Below are positions 4,177 to 48,723 of a stretch of 48,724 nt of DNA, piece after piece; the stretch's first letter is position 1; every line of letters starts with the position of its first letter. Position numbers and translations under genes: made by a program. Under the pieces are notes generated by a model. That model was not told where the DNA came from, searched no databases, and saw nothing but the letters and a program-made list of their open reading frames with translations. This stretch comes from Candidatus Woesearchaeota archaeon (GTDB taxonomy: Archaea; Nanobdellota; Nanobdellia; Woesearchaeales; ARS49): assembly GCA_014729195.1 (NCBI GenBank), contig WJKI01000013.1, positions 1 through 48,724 of the forward strand. Reading direction: 5' to 3'.

Positions 4177-4379
4177 ATAAATTCTTTCTATTGATTCTTT
4201 TTTTGATTTTTTTAACTGCATGCCAATGCATTTCTGACGAACCAGTATGCGGAGCAAATCAAAAAACATATGCCAATAAATGTGTTGCTGCGATTGTAGG
4301 GATAGATTCTGTTCGTGGCGAATGCACGCCAGCTCCTGAAGATTCAAACTGCGGATGTTCTGCTCGAGCTTTTAAATAA
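4173..4379 (+). CDS. small lipoprotein with a Kazal-like domain
   Basis: Signal peptide with LTAC lipobox, followed by EPVCGANQKTYANKC...GEC. This matches the Kazal core P(V/L)CG-x3-K-TY-x-N-x-C. Confidence 0.5.
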   Translation: MNKFFLLILFLIFLTACQCISDEPVCGANQKTYANKCVAAIVGIDSVRGECTPAPEDSNCGCSARAFK

Positions 4380-4874
4380 ACCAAATTTAGAACCAGGGTA
4401 TTGTTTTTCCAATTTATCCAAAATTTTTCCCATTTTTGTTTTTTTAACACTCCCTTTTAGTTTTAATATTTTCTTTAATGTTATTATTTCTTCATCAGAA
4501 ACTGTTCTTAGCAAATGAACTTCTTTTGATTGAGTATATGGTTTATTGGTAAATAATGATTCCAGAAATGATTCAATTTCGTAATCCAGATTTGCTGAAG
4601 TTACTATTTTGTCATATTCGCCGGTTTTAATAGATTTAATATGAATATCTAAAGGAATATCTTTTTTGATGCTATCAAGAAAATATCTGCAAATAGCAGC
4701 TTTGACAGATTTGTCATTTATGAGCAAAATATGGTCATTTGGAGCAAAAATCTTGTTAGTTGTTAAGTCTTTTCTCACTCTTTTCTCTATTGTTCGCAGA
4801 AAACACTTGTTACACATAGGACCCAGGTGCTTAAGACCTGTAGTTCCTGAATTTTGACATTTTATGCATTTCAT
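4344..4874 (-). CDS. TtuA/NcsA (Ctu1)-like protein, shortened and lacking the PP-loop
   Basis: N-terminal CxxC...CxxC finger followed by FLRTIEKRVRK. Family-like blocks are present (DKIVTSANLDYEIESFLESLF, LEKQYPGSKF). The SGGKDS position reads INDKSV. Confidence 0.6.
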   Translation of the reverse strand: MKCIKCQNSGTTGLKHLGPMCNKCFLRTIEKRVRKDLTTNKIFAPNDHILLINDKSVKAAICRYFLDSIKKDIPLDIHIKSIKTGEYDKIVTSANLDYEIESFLESLFTNKPYTQSKEVHLLRTVSDEEIITLKKILKLKGSVKKTKMGKILDKLEKQYPGSKFGLFKSSSRTSAV

Positions 4875-5166
4875 TCTTAGTAAAGGGACCTAGTGTTTTG
4901 AGCTAGTTCCCAATCTCTCTTCCTTTACTAATCTGTCATCCTTTTCTATATCCTTTATTAGAAGGAAAAGGACGACATGTTCATAACCTATATTATATAG
5001 TAGTTGTTATACTATATATAAAGGTGGGGGTTACACAGACAAATCCTGCTTCACTACTCCGGAGTAGAGATAAACCGAAAGCTTTATATATAAGTTATAC
5101 TATATATTACACAACAGGGCTGGTGGTAGAAGAATTTTTACCATATTACCAAAATTTTCAATATCT

Positions 5167-5214
5167 ATCACCTCTTTTTCCTGCGCAGATCTCTTAGGGG
5201 ATCTGTGCGGGTTT
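5167..5214 (+). ncRNA. candidate small RNA, unit 1: anti-SD-like 5' tail plus 14-bp hairpin plus U-tract
   Basis: ATCACCTCTTTTTCC is followed by the stem CCTGCGCAGATCTC/GGGATCTGTGCGGG (loop TTAG) and then TTT. The wobble pairs are G-T on the + strand only. A TATA-like CCATATTACC lies at 5141-5150. Confidence 0.35.
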
Positions 5215-5240
5215 ATATTCAAATCTTATGAAATTTTAAA

Positions 5241-5291
5241 ATCACCTCTTTTTCCCTCGCAGACTCCTTCGGGGGTTTGCGCAGGGTTTTT
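5241..5291 (+). ncRNA. candidate small RNA, unit 2: anti-SD-like 5' tail plus 14-bp hairpin plus U-tract
   Basis: ATCACCTCTTTTTCC is followed by the stem CCCTCGCAGACTCC/GGGGTTTG(C)GCAGGG with a TTCG tetraloop and then TTTTT. A TATA-like GTTTATATTC lies at 5211-5220. The stem shows compensatory changes relative to unit 1. Confidence 0.35.
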
Positions 5292-5306
5292 ATAACACAA
5301 TAGAAT

Positions 5307-7037
5307 CTACTTCTTACCCTTAAACCTGCTTGCAGGAAGAACAATAACAAGAATAAAAATACCAATAAAAATTCCAGTTAAGAACGCAAACAATGACTCC
5401 TTGTCAACAGACCAAGAAGGCGTTTTTGCTCTAGTAAAATAAATATCCAAAGTGGAAAACTCCAAAGCATATTCTGAAAATAACAAAGAAGCATAATGAT
5501 CAGTATTTTTCAAACTCTTTGCATATTCATAATAAGAATAACCAATCATAGGAAAAACATCCTTTTTATACGACTTAAACAATGCAAAACGTGCAATATC
5601 CAATTTTAAATCTATATACTCCTGAACCCTATCCTTAGAAACACCAACAGCACTTAAAATAACATCAATCTCAGACTTTGCCTTAGCTGCCTTGAATAAA
5701 CACATAACATAATCATGGTTATTCATCTCAGTATACGCATCATCCAACTCATTCCTTGTCTGAGAAAGATCTGCCTTGAGAAAAGACTTGACATAGTTAT
5801 ATCTTTCCTCTGCTTCAGAAATCTTGCTTGTGCAGGATTCTTTTAATTTTTCCTGATTAATATGAAATCTCTTGCCTTCTAAACCAAAAAACTTGGCCCA
5901 GGCAACACTAGAATAATACCTCTCCTCAGCATAAGCCAAAATATTTGAAGCATCAGTAGAATCAGCAGTATTCTCTGCCTTTGTTAAAGTATGTCCTGCT
6001 TCAGATAATCTCTCCTTGACAGCCATAAATGCTTGCAAATCAGAAATAGTATCAATAGAAGAATTAGAAACAGCAGAATCCAATTTGTCAATTTTTTCTC
6101 TGATAGTCTTAACAGCATCTTTAATCTCTTCTTTAGAATACTCTTTTAAAGAAAAATATTCCCTTTTTAACATAACATTAGACCTAAAACAAAAACTCGC
6201 AGCAGAATAAAAATCATTATTATTATACGCGGATTTCCCCTTTTTTGTGAATTCTATTGCAGAATTCTCATTATTAGAAGACTTTTTGCCCCTGGTTTTT
6301 CTCAAATCAACCAATAAATTTTGAATATCCTCATTTCTCTTGCATAAATCCAAAGCAACAGCCTTCATAGTATAAACATACTTAGGATCCAAAACAATAG
6401 ACTCATTAGAATGGATAACAGTAGTATTAGTAAAATATTCAAAAGCCTCCTCCAAAGTAGCAACTTCAACAACATCAATATCTACAGACTTGCCTAAGGC
6501 AACCAAGTCAATAGTCTTGCCGTCAGATACGTAATGTCTGCTTCCCTTAGGAATCAAAACCAAAGAAATATTCTTCTTAGCTGCGCCTTTTATTTTATAA
6601 TCAATACCGCCGACCAAGCCGATAACTCCGCCGGAATTAATAGTGCCGGTAATGGCAACATCCTTTCTAACAGGAAAACCCTTAACCAAAGCAGCAGCTA
6701 ACACAGCACTTGCTGCACCAGCACTTGGCCCCCCAACAATGCCCGGCATGGCTGAAATAGTATAAAAAAAATCCTTACCAGAACAATCAGCATCAAATTC
6801 AGAACAAGCAATCTGCTGGGCAAACCGCATACTAACCTGAGTCGCAATCTTTGTCAAAGGAAAAGTTTCCAAAAAAACCCTTTCTTTCCCTGGTTTTAAT
6901 TCCAATGACAAATCAACAACTACCCCTCTTTTACCTCCAGATTCGGTTAGCGCCAATAGTTTAATAGTATCTTTCTCAGCCAAAACACAAGGAGTGAAAA
7001 GCACTAATAATAGTATTAATATCAAGCTCTTTTTCAT
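5307..7037 (-). CDS. exported, C-terminally membrane-anchored Lon-like (S16) serine protease domain protein
   Basis: Signal peptide MKKSLILILLLVLFTPCVLA. Lon proteolytic-domain motifs are GGPSAGAA (Ser) and GGIDYKIKGAAKK (Lys). A long helical region follows, and there is a terminal TM helix FLTGIFIGIFILVIVL. Confidence 0.75.
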   Translation of the reverse strand: MKKSLILILLLVLFTPCVLAEKDTIKLLALTESGGKRGVVVDLSLELKPGKERVFLETFPLTKIATQVSMRFAQQIACSEFDADCSGKDFFYTISAMPGIVGGPSAGAASAVLAAALVKGFPVRKDVAITGTINSGGVIGLVGGIDYKIKGAAKKNISLVLIPKGSRHYVSDGKTIDLVALGKSVDIDVVEVATLEEAFEYFTNTTVIHSNESIVLDPKYVYTMKAVALDLCKRNEDIQNLLVDLRKTRGKKSSNNENSAIEFTKKGKSAYNNNDFYSAASFCFRSNVMLKREYFSLKEYSKEEIKDAVKTIREKIDKLDSAVSNSSIDTISDLQAFMAVKERLSEAGHTLTKAENTADSTDASNILAYAEERYYSSVAWAKFFGLEGKRFHINQEKLKESCTSKISEAEERYNYVKSFLKADLSQTRNELDDAYTEMNNHDYVMCLFKAAKAKSEIDVILSAVGVSKDRVQEYIDLKLDIARFALFKSYKKDVFPMIGYSYYEYAKSLKNTDHYASLLFSEYALEFSTLDIYFTRAKTPSWSVDKESLFAFLTGIFIGIFILVIVLPASRFKGKK

Positions 7038-7070
7038 ATACAGAATATTTGAAGAATTAGTATATATAGT

Positions 7071-9320
7071 TTATTGTTTTTTGGCTTTTTTCTTCTTTTT
7101 CTTTTTCTTCTTTTTGGCTTTTTTCTTCTTTTTAACTACTGGAGAACCATCCTGATTAATCTTTTCAATACACCGGCATTTAGGAAACCGATTGCAAGCA
7201 AGAAATGCACCATAAACAGATTTCCTGACAACCATATCTCCTTCACCGCACTTAGGACATTTCTTGGGCTTAACCTTAATCTCAACTTTCTTAGCCGGAC
7301 ACTCAGGATTAATACAAACCTCCTGAGGCCTTTTTCCCTTTTTAATCATCTTAACAACAGGATACTTGCAGTGCTCACAAACCTTGTCAGTAACATCCAC
7401 ACCACCAGACATGGGCAATTTAAAAGTAGTCTTGCACTCAGGATACTTGTCGCAGGCAATAAACCTGCCAAATTTACCTTTTCTTATAGACAACTTACCC
7501 TCCCCACAGGTAGGACAAGGACCAACAGTGGTCATGGCATCTCTTGTCTCTGTAAAAGTAGTATTAAGCCCCTTTCCAATCTCTTTCTGCTTTTTCTTAA
7601 AATCAGCCAAAATATCTTTTAAAACTGTCTTTGCATCTTTTAAAATCTGTTCTTTTTTCTTCTTATTTTCCCTAATCAATTCCATGTCCTTCTCAAACTT
7701 TCTTGTCAATTCCTCGTCTATAATCTTAGAACAATATTTTTCAAGAATGCCAATAATATGAACACCCAAATCAGTAGCTTCCAAAGACTCGCCCTTAACA
7801 TAATTTCTTTTATACAATCTATCAACAATATCTGCTCTTGTGGCTTTAGTACCCAAACTTCTTTTTTCCAATTCTTTAATAATAGAAGAATGAGTATATC
7901 TCTTTGGAGGCTGAGTTTCCTTGCTATGCAAAATAATTTTCTTGACATCAACAACATCATCTTTTTTAACATTTGGCAATTCTGTTTCCTCCAATTTAAC
8001 ATACGGAGCATAAAAAACATGCCAGTTCTTTTCAATCGTCCTTGAACCTTTTGCAATAAAAATTTCCTTTTTAACATCTATATTAATAATCATAGTTTCT
8101 CTAACTGCAGGAGTTGAAAAAGTAGCCATAAACCTCTTGACAATCAAATCATAAATCTTTGCAGGTCGATCTTCCAACCGTCTGCTCACCCCTGTAGGAT
8201 AAATAGCAGGATGCGCAGGATCAGTTTTCTTGCCATTATTCGGCTCCAAATTCTTAATCTTAAGCAAGTCCCCGCATAAATCAGAATATTTTTTATTCTT
8301 TCGCAAAGCAGTAATGATTTTTGCATAACCAATCGCCTTGGGCAATTGCTGAGAAGAAGTTCTTGGATAAGAAATAATGCCGTTAGTATACAAGTTCTGA
8401 GCAATAGACAAAGTCTCCTTGGGTTTGATACCAAAACACCTGTATGCCTCTGTCTGCAATGAAGTCAAGTCAAAAGGATGAGGAGGAGATTGTTTGAATT
8501 TTTTCCTTTCAATATCCGCAACAATGCCAGTTTTTTCATTTTTAACATTTTTCATTACCTTATCTGCTTTTTTCTTGTCCCAAAACTTATCCTCTTTATG
8601 CCAGGCAATAATCGGCGATTTTTTTGCCTCGCCCTGTAATTCAATCTGCCAAAAAGGAACGGGCGTGAATTTTTGAATCTCTTTCTCCCGATCAACAATA
8701 ATCTTCAAAGCCGGTCCCTGCACTCTACCTGTGCTTAAAATCTTAAACATGCCTGTAGAAGTAATCGCAGAAGTCAAAGCCCTGGATAAATTAATACCAT
8801 AAAAATAATCCAAAAAATGTCTGGCCTCGCCTGCCTCTGCCTGCCCCCAATCCAAAGTAGAGCTTGCATTTTCATACGCAGCTATAACATCTGGTTTTGT
8901 CAAAGTAGAAAATTTCATTCTGTTTGCGTCATTTCTGTTGCAGATGAATCTTATGATATTCAAACCGATAACTTCCCCTTCAATATCATAGTCGCAGGCA
9001 ACTGTGAAGGACTTTGCATTTTTTGCCAATTTTTTAAGAACATTAAAATATTTTTTTGAGAAATCAGCAGACTTGGAAACCTCATAATTAGGAACCCACT
9101 CAATATCAAAAACAGGATATTTAAAACCCTTTGACTTAACCTTTTCAGCCAAGCCAAATAAGTGACCTACTGCACAACCAATCACTAAATCCCTGTTTCC
9201 ATGAGTTACTTTATAGTATGGAACACCTTTTAAATTTTCTTTTATTGGTTTTCCATCAGCCAGGGCTTCAGCAATCCTCTTGCTGGCATTAGGCTTCTCT
9301 GTGATAATCAATTCATACAT
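7071..9320 (-). CDS. topA: DNA topoisomerase I (type IA, archaeal TopA) with C-terminal zinc ribbons and a poly-Lys tail
   Basis: Toprim start MYELIITEKPNASKRIAEAL, active-site region ISYPRTSSQQL, and several CxxC...CxxC ribbons. The start is set at ATG 9320. The track extension to 9428 would overlap the divergent gene and encodes a non-homologous hydrophobic peptide. Confidence 0.9.
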   Translation of the reverse strand: MYELIITEKPNASKRIAEALADGKPIKENLKGVPYYKVTHGNRDLVIGCAVGHLFGLAEKVKSKGFKYPVFDIEWVPNYEVSKSADFSKKYFNVLKKLAKNAKSFTVACDYDIEGEVIGLNIIRFICNRNDANRMKFSTLTKPDVIAAYENASSTLDWGQAEAGEARHFLDYFYGINLSRALTSAITSTGMFKILSTGRVQGPALKIIVDREKEIQKFTPVPFWQIELQGEAKKSPIIAWHKEDKFWDKKKADKVMKNVKNEKTGIVADIERKKFKQSPPHPFDLTSLQTEAYRCFGIKPKETLSIAQNLYTNGIISYPRTSSQQLPKAIGYAKIITALRKNKKYSDLCGDLLKIKNLEPNNGKKTDPAHPAIYPTGVSRRLEDRPAKIYDLIVKRFMATFSTPAVRETMIINIDVKKEIFIAKGSRTIEKNWHVFYAPYVKLEETELPNVKKDDVVDVKKIILHSKETQPPKRYTHSSIIKELEKRSLGTKATRADIVDRLYKRNYVKGESLEATDLGVHIIGILEKYCSKIIDEELTRKFEKDMELIRENKKKKEQILKDAKTVLKDILADFKKKQKEIGKGLNTTFTETRDAMTTVGPCPTCGEGKLSIRKGKFGRFIACDKYPECKTTFKLPMSGGVDVTDKVCEHCKYPVVKMIKKGKRPQEVCINPECPAKKVEIKVKPKKCPKCGEGDMVVRKSVYGAFLACNRFPKCRCIEKINQDGSPVVKKKKKAKKKKKKKKKKAKKQ

Positions 9321-9397
9321 ACTTTTAAAAAAAAACAAATAGTTTAAAAAGGTTTGTATATTTGGCATACTATATATAGGCAAAAAAGAGGAAAAAT

Positions 9398-11065
9398 ATG
9401 CAAAAATCCAACCTAAAAAGGGTTTCAAGTATAGTCAATGTTCTTGTAAAACACGGATTAGGTCATTTTGTACAAAAATACGGACTTACAAGACACCTGC
9501 CGTTCCTAAAAAGATTCACAATCACCACAACTGAAACAGGAGACATACCAATACGACTTCGAAAAGCAATGGAAGAATTAGGCGGAGCATATGTAAAATT
9601 AGGACAATTGCTAAGCCTAAGACCGGATTTAGTACCATCCACTTGGTGCGATGAATTCAAAAAATTACTTGATAAAACAACACCTTTTTCTTATGAGCAG
9701 ATTAAAGTGATAGTAGAAAAAGAACTAGGCAAGCCCATTAAAAAAATATTCTCCTCATTTGACAAAAAACCAATTGGTTCAGCATCAATAGCCCAGGTGC
9801 ACAAGGCAACACTTCGCTCCGGCAAAAAAGTAGTAGTCAAAGTCCAAAGACCACAAGTAAGAGAGAAATTCGAATCAGACATCCAAATTCTTTATTATCT
9901 AGCACGAAAAGTTGACAGATATATAAAAAACCATGCAAGCCCCCTGGATATTGTTGAAGAATTTGAAAACTACACAAAAAAAGAACTTGATTTTACAATT
10001 GAAGCAAAAAATGCCGACAAATTTCATAAAAATTTCCGGGAATCATCCAAAGTAGAAATTCCAAAAGTATACTGGCAATATACTACCTCACGCGTATTTG
10101 TAATGGAATATTTTAAAGGAGAGAAATTATCAGAAGCAAAACTGAAAAAATCCCAAAAACCAAAATTGGCCAAGACAATAGCAGAATGTTTTTTCAAACA
10201 AGGAATGGAAGACGGCTTTTTCCATGCAGACCTGCATCCGGGAAACATACTAGTATTACCGAAAGAAAAAATAGCACTGCTCGATTTTGGAATAGTTGCA
10301 GAACTAGATCCAACACTGCAAAAACTTGAACTGGAAATGTACATTGCAATAGTCAATAAAGACGTAAAACAAGTCATAAGAGTATTGCTAAAAGAAGGAA
10401 TGCCAACAGAAGAAACAGACCTGCAGGCATTTGCAATAGACACGGAAAATATACTTGATGAATGGTACGGTGCTGAACTAAAAAGCGCACGCATAACAAG
10501 CATGATGTATCATTTATTCAACAATTGCGTCGCGCATAAAATAAAAATGCCGACAAATTTAATACTGTTGGGAAAAGGAATGCTTACAGCAGAAGGAACC
10601 TGTCTTTATGTAGATCCTCAATTTGATTTTATGGAGTTTTCACGACCGCGAATAGCCAAGCTATTAAAAAAACAAAAAAGACCGGACAAACTAATAAAAA
10701 AATTCATGAGCAAGTCAAGAGATTTAGCATTTAAACTAGCAGATATACCCGATGAGACCATGGATGTTTTAGAAAAATTAAAACACGGAGCAATAAAAGT
10801 AGATATGGCCTATACAGATGTGCGACATGTAGGAATGGACATTAACAAAAGCAGTAATCGTTTGGCCTATGCAATGATAATTGCCGCGTTGATAGTTGCC
10901 GGTTCACTGCTAATACACCTACAGCCATCTATACACGGCTATTCAGTATTCTCAATATTAAGCCTGTCAGGAGCGCTTATATTATTAATCGCCTTATTTG
11001 TATCAGTATTAAGAGAGGGATCAGCTATTTATGACCCTCATAAGAAATGGAAGCCAAGGAGGTGA
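9398..11065 (+). CDS. ABC1/UbiB (aarF-domain) atypical kinase with C-terminal TM helices
   Basis: Contains LGGAYVKLGQLLSLRPDL, GSASIAQVHKA and FFHADLHPGNIL, the typical ABC1 family motifs. Confidence 0.85.
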   Translation: MQKSNLKRVSSIVNVLVKHGLGHFVQKYGLTRHLPFLKRFTITTTETGDIPIRLRKAMEELGGAYVKLGQLLSLRPDLVPSTWCDEFKKLLDKTTPFSYEQIKVIVEKELGKPIKKIFSSFDKKPIGSASIAQVHKATLRSGKKVVVKVQRPQVREKFESDIQILYYLARKVDRYIKNHASPLDIVEEFENYTKKELDFTIEAKNADKFHKNFRESSKVEIPKVYWQYTTSRVFVMEYFKGEKLSEAKLKKSQKPKLAKTIAECFFKQGMEDGFFHADLHPGNILVLPKEKIALLDFGIVAELDPTLQKLELEMYIAIVNKDVKQVIRVLLKEGMPTEETDLQAFAIDTENILDEWYGAELKSARITSMMYHLFNNCVAHKIKMPTNLILLGKGMLTAEGTCLYVDPQFDFMEFSRPRIAKLLKKQKRPDKLIKKFMSKSRDLAFKLADIPDETMDVLEKLKHGAIKVDMAYTDVRHVGMDINKSSNRLAYAMIIAALIVAGSLLIHLQPSIHGYSVFSILSLSGALILLIALFVSVLREGSAIYDPHKKWKPRR

Positions 11066-18224: not shown

Positions 18225-18382
18225 TTCATTAACAAGTAGTAATGTGTTGTTTTTTGATAAAGTACTGACATGAATGATTAAGAATATATTTTTGACTTGC
18301 AATTTATTTAAATATAAGATGTGTTTTCTAAACATTGCGTGAGGAGAGAGCTGGTGATAGAAACAAAAAGAGGTGAATTATT

Positions 18383-18526
18383 ATGGGTGCAATAGGAATA
18401 AGCTTTTTAAAGAAAAAACAAAATCGGGACCTTGGAGATTTCTTTGATGCCTCTAAAGAAGAAGGATATACTGAAATTCAGGATGCAGAACTGGAACAGT
18501 ATGATGAAACAGATTATATTAATTAA
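18383..18526 (+). CDS. possible 47-aa acidic protein (below the track cutoff)
   Basis: AAAAAGAGGTGA (18365-18376) lies 6 nt before the ATG. The protein reads MGAIGISFLKKKQNRDLGDFFDASKEEGYTEIQDAELEQYDETDYIN. Confidence 0.3.
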   Translation: MGAIGISFLKKKQNRDLGDFFDASKEEGYTEIQDAELEQYDETDYIN

Positions 18527-38065: not shown

Positions 38066-38168
38066 TAGCCCCGGGCAGATTCGAACTGCCGTCTGCGCAT
38101 CCAAAGTGCACAATGACTGGCCTTCTTTGGTACAAACCATAAGAATTTGACCACTACACTACGGGGCT
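38066..38168 (-). tRNA. tRNA-Gln (UUG) with a ~31-nt insertion in the D arm
   Basis: Hand fold: AGCCCCG-TA-GTGT-AGTGGTCA-A[~31 nt, ~38116-38146]CAT-T-GTGCA-CTTTGGA-TGCGC-AGAC-GGCAG-TTCGAAT-CTGCC-CGGGGCT-A. Confidence 0.8.
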
Positions 38169-44729: not shown

Positions 44730-44803
44730 GCCCCTGTAGTATAGCTTGGATAGTACGCACGGTTGCGGTCCGTGAAACCGGAGTTCAAATCTTCGCAGGG
44801 GCA
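44730..44803 (+). tRNA. tRNA-Arg (GCG), no intron
   Basis: Hand fold: GCCCCTG-TA-GTAT-AGCTTGGATA-GTAC-G-CACGG-TTGCGGT-CCGTG-AAAC-CGGAG-TTCAAAT-CTTCG-CAGGGGC-A. Confidence 0.9.
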
Positions 44804-48635: not shown

Positions 48636-48723
48636 TGGGCCTGCGGAGATTTGAACTCCGGACCTCACGATTTCTATCTTTTTGATATCAGTCGTGCGCT
48701 CCACCAGGCTAAGCTACAGGCCC
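48636..48723 (-). tRNA. tRNA-Ile (GAU) with a canonical 14-nt intron after position 37
   Basis: Hand fold: GGGCCTG-TA-GCTT-AGCCTGGTG-GAGC-G-CACGA-CTGATA[TCAAAAAGATAGAA, 48672-48685]A-TCGTG-AGGTC-CGGAG-TTCAAAT-CTCCG-CAGGCCC-A. Confidence 0.85.

Follow-up and report, generated by a model that had tools for sequence, protein, structure and literature searches.

A predicted single-copy small RNA gene with an anti-Shine-Dalgarno core, conserved across Woesearchaeota

The stretch of DNA analyzed here (the window) comprises 48,724 nucleotides of contig WJKI01000013.1 from a Candidatus Woesearchaeota archaeon. The window is archaeal, and its nearest relatives are metagenome-assembled genomes labelled Candidatus Woesearchaeota. 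An intergenic region of 432 nt (4875-5306) holds two hairpin units, which are the subject of this report. It is flanked by two genes of the - strand: 4344-4874 encodes a protein of 176 aa, and 5307-7037 one of 576 aa with a Lon_C domain. Unit 1 (5167-5214) and unit 2 (5241-5291) each consist of ATCACCTCTTTTTCC, a 14-bp hairpin and a T-run, an architecture that had been proposed from the letters alone (hereafter, the sequence-only reading) and that was confirmed by exact motif matches, folds and a covariance model. In the window, 5167-5179 and 5241-5253 of the + strand are the only exact matches to ATCACCTCTTTTT; at two or fewer mismatches there are 14 matches, compared with 4.1 expected. The 15-mer at the head of unit 1 (5167-5181, + strand) is composed of ATCACCTC, which is the core of the anti-Shine-Dalgarno (anti-SD) sequence, followed by TTTTT and CC, and the same 15-mer recurs at 5241-5255 (+ strand). 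Hairpin 1 (5180-5214, + strand; stem 5180-5193/5198-5211) has 14 bp and the loop TTAG and is followed by TTT. Hairpin 2 (5254-5291, + strand; stem 5254-5267/5272-5286) has 14 bp, one bulged C and a cUUCGg loop, and with its trailing TTTTT it probably forms the main 3' end of the RNA.

Within the window, the properties of both units point to the + strand as the one transcribed. All of the non-Watson-Crick stem pairs, three in unit 1 and two in unit 2, are G-T on the + strand, as the sequence-only reading had stated. The + strand fold energies of units 1 and 2 are -25.0 and -23.2 kcal/mol, respectively (z of about -6, with 0 of 200 shuffles as good). The corresponding - strand folds, at -13.3 and -15.0 kcal/mol, are about 10 kcal/mol worse because each non-canonical pair is a G-U on the + strand. 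In folds of the isolated units, AUCACCUCUUUUU is unpaired, and the earlier description of an unpaired segment equal to the anti-SD core of the 16S rRNA 3' end is borne out. Additionally, a covariance model built from 26 gapless units and run over the 48.7-kb window with filters off recovered only the two units, at 5159-5214 (73.6 bits) and 5233-5289 (62.8 bits).

The sequence-only reading had made its proposal depend on homologues with covarying stems in related genomes, and many were found. A protein-anchored search of species-representative genomes with the Lon_C-like protein led to two Woesearchaeota loci, L001 and L002 (79 and 82% protein identity), in both of which the two units occupy the corresponding position. 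The window and these two loci share a unit 2 of 100% identity, despite the 79-82% identity of the neighboring protein. In unit 1, the changes keep the pairing by means of G-U pairs on the + strand, with a loop of UUAG, GCAA or UUCG, and the spacer between the units differs in both length and sequence. One metagenome scan with the DNA pattern ATCACCTCTTTTTCCNNCGCAG returned 72 stretches, 67 of which are true units; the other five (L013, L022, L035, L038 and L061) lack the hairpin and were excluded as false positives. In viral contigs the pattern scan gave 0 matches. Altogether, the pattern scan, the protein-anchored search and the covariance model identified 97 units in 67 loci, and all of the named ones belong to Woesearchaeota. 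Four further loci, reached only through Lon_C-like homologues of 42-53% identity, all possess units with the exact 15-mer, and units are present in six of the six loci reached through the Lon_C-like protein alone (42-82% identity). No contig carries more than one locus, and this holds for contigs as long as 875, 784, 497 and 463 kb. Two modules are found in about 30 of the 67 loci and one in the others, with a maximum of two units per locus. Based on this distribution, the element is predicted to be a single-copy small-RNA gene that is conserved across Woesearchaeota.

The conservation pattern is that of a structured RNA. In an alignment of 84 distinct units, 96% of stem cells are paired and 11 of the 14 pairs show double changes. 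None of 500 shuffles matched this, and sliding the stem alignment gave 36-57% pairing. In 65 non-redundant units the stems contain 776 Watson-Crick and 132 G-U pairs on the unit strand (132/908), and these G-U pairs correspond to A-C mismatches on the opposite strand. UUCG (n = 33) and GCAA (n = 15) are the common loops of these 65 units, and GGGUUU ends every one of them, the 3' U-run being U3-7 and often just 3 nt. The base of the stem is almost fixed, as CCCGCGCAG...CUGCG(A/U)GGG or CCCUCGCAG...UGCAGGG, and its fourth position repeatedly shows a G-A pair, a G-U pair or a bulge; the upper stem is free to vary. Of the 97 units, including those of the protein-found loci, all but one have exactly the same single-stranded AUCACCUCUUUUUCC; only the second unit of L025/L030 departs from it, with AACACCUCUUUCC. 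The predicted module is therefore a single-stranded AUCACCUCUUUUUCC joined to a covarying GC-rich hairpin, mostly with a UUCG or GCAA cap, and a U-run. The G-U pairs, the UUCG and GCAA tetraloops and a conserved promoter of the same orientation, described below, support a structured RNA on the + strand, as had been proposed earlier, and it is very probable that the locus is a genuine RNA gene of this kind.

The transcription unit differs from that envisaged by the sequence-only reading, in which two RNAs of about 50 nt were each led by a promoter. Depending on the locus, the starts of the two units are 51-159 nt apart, and in some pairs only 3-9 nt lie between hairpin 1 and the second 15-mer, which is too short for a promoter. 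AT-rich strings do exist 19-22 nt 5' of each unit, where TATA-like boxes had been proposed, but their position is not conserved in relatives. Moreover, the box assigned to unit 1 overlaps the ACCATATTA block (5140-5148, + strand), a part of the RNA's 5' domain that is conserved in L001, L002 and L044 and whose distance to unit 1 varies. The sole promoter conserved across the family is a transcription factor B recognition element (BRE; CCGAAAG) with a TATA box (TTTATATA) at 5075-5090 (+ strand), which is invariant in the window's clade. This canonical archaeal promoter is present at almost all of the loci; in 59 non-redundant ones it has the consensus a(A/C)CGAAAGnTTTAWATA and lies 44-149 nt 5' of the first unit, with the TTTAWAWA box nearly always preceded by (A/C)GAAA. 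Because the only conserved promoter is the BRE/TATA 5' of the first unit, the units would belong, as one or two 3' modules, to one longer RNA. In archaea, the distance from the TATA box to the transcription start has a standard value, and this spacing would place the start at 5113-5117 (+ strand), 22-26 nt past the TATA box. The predicted RNA would then be about 100 nt long if it ends at 5214 or about 175 nt if it ends at 5291. Overall, 5113-5291 (+ strand) is best described as a putative stand-alone non-coding RNA gene with a BRE/TATA, a variable 5' domain and one or two fixed modules. A promoter and a terminator of its own, and the lack of a conserved gene downstream, suggest that it is transcribed independently. 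The genes downstream are convergent or unrelated, for example those for a DinB-like polymerase and a saccharopine-dehydrogenase-like protein, and for this reason a leader of a downstream gene was rejected as an identity for the element.

The surroundings of the promoter have further features. Just 5' of the BRE, at 5053-5067, is an operator-like palindrome, ACTACTCC/GGAGTAG, of which CTTCACTACT..AGTAG is invariant in the clade. Palindromes of the form ACTACT(N)AGTAG likewise flank the promoter around the BRE/TATA in related loci. In 29 of 60 loci, the ACTACT 5' of the BRE forms an inverted repeat of 7-13 bp with AGTAGTAACA at the predicted start. The mismatches in this repeat, 22 G-T versus 14 A-C, show no strand bias, which makes a DNA operator no less likely than an RNA motif. 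Farther upstream, at 5007-5031, a second TATA-like block and G-run (TTATACTATATATAAAGGTGGGGG) duplicates the stretch that follows the main TATA box (5096-5129), and its ACTATATATAAA is invariant in the window's clade. Two roles may be considered for this block: a second promoter of the + strand, from which an isoform with an extended 5' end or an independent short RNA would be made, or the promoter of the divergent gene. In the clade of L005, L006, L011, L019, L027 and L063, an upstream TATA is followed by GGGGGTTAGGA.

The 5' domain varies between loci in both length and sequence, and in part of the family it appears able to mask the anti-SD segment. In the window it contains a G-rich Shine-Dalgarno (SD)-like element, GGGCTGGTGGTAG (5117-5129, + strand), which pairs with the anti-SD in the minimum-energy fold and whose TGGTGGT is invariant in the clade. 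Specifically, GGTGGTAG (5122-5129) is able to pair with CTATCACC (5165-5172), or, as written for the RNA, GGUGGUAG with CUAUCACC. A similar G-rich stretch (GGGGUGGU-like) is present in the 5' domain of 30 of the 59 non-redundant RNAs. Its complementarity to AUCACCUCUU beats shuffles (p ≤ 0.05) in 30 of 59, and the minimum-energy fold of the full-length RNA pairs it with the anti-SD segment in 30 of 59. The shortest members (L014, L056 and L068) have no G-rich stretch, and their anti-SD is predicted to be free. Since the stretch occurs in about half of the RNAs and is absent from the shortest, the anti-SD seed would be optionally maskable. In L002, an insertion of about 34 nt with its own hairpin (TATAATCCAACGCCAAC...GTTGGCGAGGATTATA; 2655-2700, - strand of that locus) lies between the ACCATATTA block and unit 1, in the loop of the predicted helix of G-rich stretch and anti-SD. 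Similar inserted hairpins are found at the same position in L037, L053 and L067.

The earlier impression that the element is not a recognizable member of a described archaeal RNA family was upheld by a scan with Rfam 15. At the gathering threshold, only three tRNAs were found in the window, and at E ≤ 10 the region 4700-5450 gave chance matches only, the best being RsaOG (21.8 bits versus a gathering score of 50). In 13 related loci only tRNAs were found, and literature searches covering anti-SD and structured RNAs of DPANN or Woesearchaeota yielded no account of this element. To our knowledge, hardly any work exists on regulatory and structural RNAs in DPANN archaea, organisms that are uncultured or hard to culture.

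Parallels in known systems are nevertheless informative. The 3' tail of 16S rRNA is the anti-SD, GAUCACCUCCU. Its core, AUCACCUC, is identical in the Woesearchaeota RNA and is likewise single-stranded and able to pair with the same SDs. In the RNA, however, this core is internal to a molecule of about 100-175 nt, before the U5 run and the hairpin, rather than at a 3' end after helix 45, and there is no small subunit (SSU) rRNA context. The Hfq-binding module of bacterial small RNAs (sRNAs) consists of a U-rich stretch, a terminator hairpin and a 3' U tail. In the Woesearchaeota RNA, the U5 run adjoins a GC-rich hairpin with a final U-run, an arrangement that resembles this module. In contrast, the host is an archaeon, the putative partner would be a Sm-like protein, and the 3' U-run is often 3 nt. 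The segment of U5, hairpin and U-tail is possibly a site for an archaeal Sm-like protein. The Hfq-binding module of bacteria is treated in PMC4509938 and PMC5558911.

Two groups of sRNAs are closer in their proposed action. The streptococcal cia-dependent small RNAs (csRNAs; ccnA-E) possess an unpaired region with complements to the SD and to AUG, GUG or UUG start codons (PMC3091779). Like the Woesearchaeota RNA, they are short, have their own strong promoter, an unpaired complement of SD and start codon and a terminator hairpin, and are proposed to block initiation; several similar copies occur per genome (PMC3091779). However, the csRNAs are bacterial and unrelated in sequence, and the Woesearchaeota RNA gave no Rfam match. 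In addition, their anti-SD lies between two hairpins and they are encoded by separate genes, whereas here one or two modules belong to one archaeal transcript. The Woesearchaeota 15-mer, moreover, is invariant across an order-level lineage and equals the 16S tail over 8 nt. In Methanosarcina mazei, sRNA41 and sRNA154 are archaeal intergenic sRNAs that mask the ribosome-binding sites (RBSs) of target mRNAs, and the archaeal Lsm protein binds sRNAs (PMC5867862). Those sRNAs are lineage-specific and condition-regulated with defined targets, while the Woesearchaeota gene looks constitutive and universal in its lineage, and there is no similarity in sequence or structure. The RNA is thus new to Rfam 15 and to the literature searched, and anti-SD riboregulators as a kind were already known. 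What sets it apart from them is its lineage-wide occurrence in single copy, the virtually invariant 15-mer, the possible tandem modules and the optional self-masking SD-like element. There is a real chance that it is more basic to translation in these reduced genomes.

As to function, the strong promoter, the single-stranded anti-SD with U5, the stable hairpin and the U-tail together match sRNAs that occlude initiation regions. The tentative interpretation, held at somewhat under even confidence, is that the RNA acts in trans as an anti-SD or anti-initiation-region sRNA built on a module of U-rich stretch, hairpin and U-tail. Because AUCACCUC is the sequence of the 16S anti-SD core, it would pair with any GAGGUGAU-type SD. 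The SD-led genes of the window read (A)nGAGGTGAT or GGAGGT, and the U5 run would lengthen the pairing into the A-run that often precedes their SDs. A site with an A-run and GAGGUGAU could form up to 13 bp with the sRNA compared with about 8 bp with the 16S tail. Furthermore, most first units have CAU, CAA or CAC 0-6 nt 5' of the anti-SD, which would pair with a start codon; this occurs in 41 of 63 first units versus 14-25 in control windows, although the lineages sampled are not independent. When bound, the RNA would deny 30S subunits access to SD-led cistrons. The U5 run, hairpin and 3' U-tail would serve as a terminator and 3' stabilizer, and possibly as the site of an archaeal Sm-like protein, and masking of the seed by the 5' G-rich stretch in about half of the members would make the activity switchable. 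The site at 18365-18377, which had been noted earlier as complementary to the 13-mer, is a real one-mismatch match and forms the RBS of a 47-aa ORF. This unannotated ORF (18383-18526, + strand; MGAIGISFLKKKQNRDLGDFF...) is preceded by AAAAAGAGGTGAA, the closest complement to the RNA 13-mer in the window, and has no Pfam match.

Several observations weigh against such a role. The sequence-only reading had SD-type RBSs in use throughout the window. They do occur, but the SD-motif screen flags 10 of the 43 long ORFs, about five more show by eye a purine-rich stretch like an SD, and most have no SD. Few real gene starts have the complement to all 13 nt. A duplex-energy target scan of the 48.7-kb window gave no standout, the best sites, at about -20 to -24 kcal/mol, being generic purine-rich ones. 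The start-codon complement, already qualified by the non-independence of the lineages, is absent in second units. Pairing with SDs does not explain why UUUUUCC and the stem base CGCAG/CUGCG are invariant, which suggests a protein partner, and the predicted fold sequesters the anti-SD in about half of the members. In addition, the T5 inside the RNA could itself be a terminator of archaeal transcription, and both the 5' and the 3' ends of the RNA are inferred. An SD logo made from all GGTGA sites in the loci was too noisy to use without proper gene calls.

The main alternative keeps the resemblance to 16S rRNA and drops the pairing with mRNA. In this view the RNA would imitate the 3' tail of 16S rRNA or act as a decoy of it, and may have been left over from a mini rRNA operon; it would show AUCACCUC to 3'-end-recognizing proteins and titrate them or be processed by them. 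Candidate partners would be the KH-domain factor Dim2/Pno1, the endonuclease Nob1 or an anti-SD-targeting nuclease. Invariance of the 15-mer and the stem base while neighboring proteins are only 35-50% identical fits recognition by protein, and a single copy with a strong promoter of the stable-RNA type, in every genome sampled, is housekeeping-like. Many members also begin with AGUAGUAACA(A/G)GG, like the 16S GUCGUAACAAGG, 5' of the anti-SD as in 16S, and the helix of G-rich stretch and anti-SD resembles an SD:anti-SD duplex or a pre-rRNA processing stem. Nevertheless, there is no conserved element like helix 45; the interval varies from 14 to more than 100 nt and is unstructured in the shortest members. 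AGUAGUAACA is absent from the window's clade, and the AGUAGU motif belongs to the promoter-flanking inverted repeat, whose lack of strand bias suggests a DNA operator. The bases 5' of AUCACCUC are AUCU or UUCAAR, versus GG in 16S, and the RNA has CUCUUUUU at the position of the 16S CUCCU. Finally, no match to the SSU model was found even at E ≤ 10, no rRNA gene is present in any fetched locus, and GTCGTAACAAGGTA and other universal rRNA motifs were found in none of the loci. On balance, this alternative is considered rather unlikely. A piece of rRNA or a 16S 3' end as such was rejected, given the absence of an SSU match, the variable upstream interval and the lack of rRNA motifs. ORF-free gaps of 1-1.8 kb downstream in some loci, examined as possible rRNA genes, contained none and result from crude ORF calling. 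The two ideas meet in a broader one, also rather doubtful, in which a dedicated, constitutively promoted free copy of the anti-SD tail would be a core part of the translation apparatus in these reduced genomes and not an ordinary condition-specific regulator. It would act either as a universal competitor of 30S at SD-led cistrons, possibly setting the balance of SD-led and leaderless initiation, or as a decoy or substrate for 16S 3'-end factors or nucleases.

The position of the RNA relative to its neighbors raises a different possibility, namely a cis-antisense regulator or transcriptional roadblock, in which strong transcription of the + strand, together with the stable hairpins, would act on the convergent - strand transcript of the topoisomerase, the Lon_C-like gene and the gene for homologues of the 176-aa protein (Zn176). 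The RNA would pair with the 3' end of the Lon_C-like mRNA or stop transcription from running on into the next gene. The end of the last hairpin falls at -8 to +60 nt from a convergent stop codon in about 29 loci, usually that of the Lon_C-like gene, and in L077 the unit overlaps the 3' end of that gene. The Lon_C-like gene is found in 61 loci and Zn176 in 40. Read-through is plausible, as the - strand has no T5 run past the Lon_C-like stop codon. However, a clade of six loci (L005, L006, L019, L036, L041 and L063) keeps the RNA unchanged among other neighbors, with the Lon_C-like gene 1.3-4 kb off, and in L078 the distance is about 2.3 kb. A purely antisense action, moreover, does not need an invariant 15-mer, and this explanation is judged improbable. 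If the - strand were instead the functional one, the hairpin would accompany a real RBS for a micro-ORF encoding a leader peptide or type I toxin, or would form a ribosome standby site. The - strand indeed reads AAAAAGAGGUGAU, with a start codon 0-6 nt further on in 41 of 63 first units, often then AAA. Yet the peptides, of 1-40 residues, are unrelated and frame-shifted between close relatives, no conserved ORF exists on either strand of the locus, and about a quarter of the units, namely unit 2 of the window and 24 others, have no start codon. On that strand 14.5% of the stem pairs become A-C mismatches, the loops are special on the + strand only, and the conserved promoter faces the opposite way. 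A functional - strand is accordingly very improbable, and a type I toxin-antitoxin system was rejected because the opposite-strand ORFs of 1-40 codons are unconserved and frame-shifted and about a quarter of the units lack a start codon.

The remaining proposal, that the units are merely single or doubled transcription terminators or short dispersed repeats of the repetitive extragenic palindrome (REP) or miniature inverted-repeat transposable element (MITE) type, is regarded as having next to no chance of being correct. An intrinsic-terminator-like feature, a GC-rich stem-loop followed by a T-run on the transcribed strand, is present for the 3' part of the RNA only. A consensus scan scores both hairpins as terminator-like, and a hairpin with a T-run is the style found after tRNA genes in the window. 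This likeness leaves the invariant 15-mer and the dedicated promoter unexplained, for a terminator needs neither these, nor a promoter conserved 44-149 nt upstream, nor lineage-wide synteny. Dispersed repeats would not be confined to one locus per genome-sized contig, and no terminal repeats or target duplications were found. A REP/MITE or CRISPR-like array was also set aside, there being two units in the window, at most two per locus and one locus per contig of up to 875 kb. With regard to the terminators of the window, the tRNA genes at 44730-44803 and 38066-38168 have a hairpin and T-run downstream, and that at 48636-48723 has a bare T6; hairpin and T-run thus appear to be the local terminator style of stable RNAs. 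The tRNA genes at 38066-38168 (- strand, 103 nt) and 48636-48723 (- strand, 88 nt), found by Rfam and missed by ARAGORN, presumably contain introns.

Whichever function applies, the element is a clean, strongly covarying, lineage-wide RNA gene with a functional handle in its invariant copy of the anti-SD, and the covariance model is ready for annotating genomes. If the RNA masks RBSs, anti-SD riboregulation reaches the DPANN archaea, whose genomes are very small. As a mimic of the 16S tail, it would instead represent a novel type of component of translation or ribosome biogenesis.

The neighboring genes have some features of their own. The order of topoisomerase I, Lon_C-like protein and RNA (5307-9428, - strand, for the genes of the window; L077-L080) is conserved at 42-82% protein identity, and an ABC1 kinase gene lies divergently upstream of it. 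The Lon_C (S16) protease-like protein is secreted or membrane-bound, with a signal peptide and a C-terminal transmembrane helix. The 176-aa protein (4344-4874, - strand), encoded divergently to the RNA, is a truncated, degenerate TtuA/NcsA-like protein. Its residues 1-76, the zinc-finger region, match the U34 tRNA thiolase 6scy (E 7e-5) and a C-terminal TIGR00269-like stretch is kept, with no intact PP-loop motif discernible by eye. This protein could be an RNA-binding partner, or it could be merely syntenic. Between its gene and the promoter of the RNA lies an inverted repeat, GTCATCCTTTTC / GAAAAGGACGAC (4935-4946 / 4965-4976), which is absent in L034, L037 and L044. In L001 and L002 its arms change compatibly, with wobble pairs on the - strand, which suggests a hairpin in the 5' untranslated region of the 176-aa gene.

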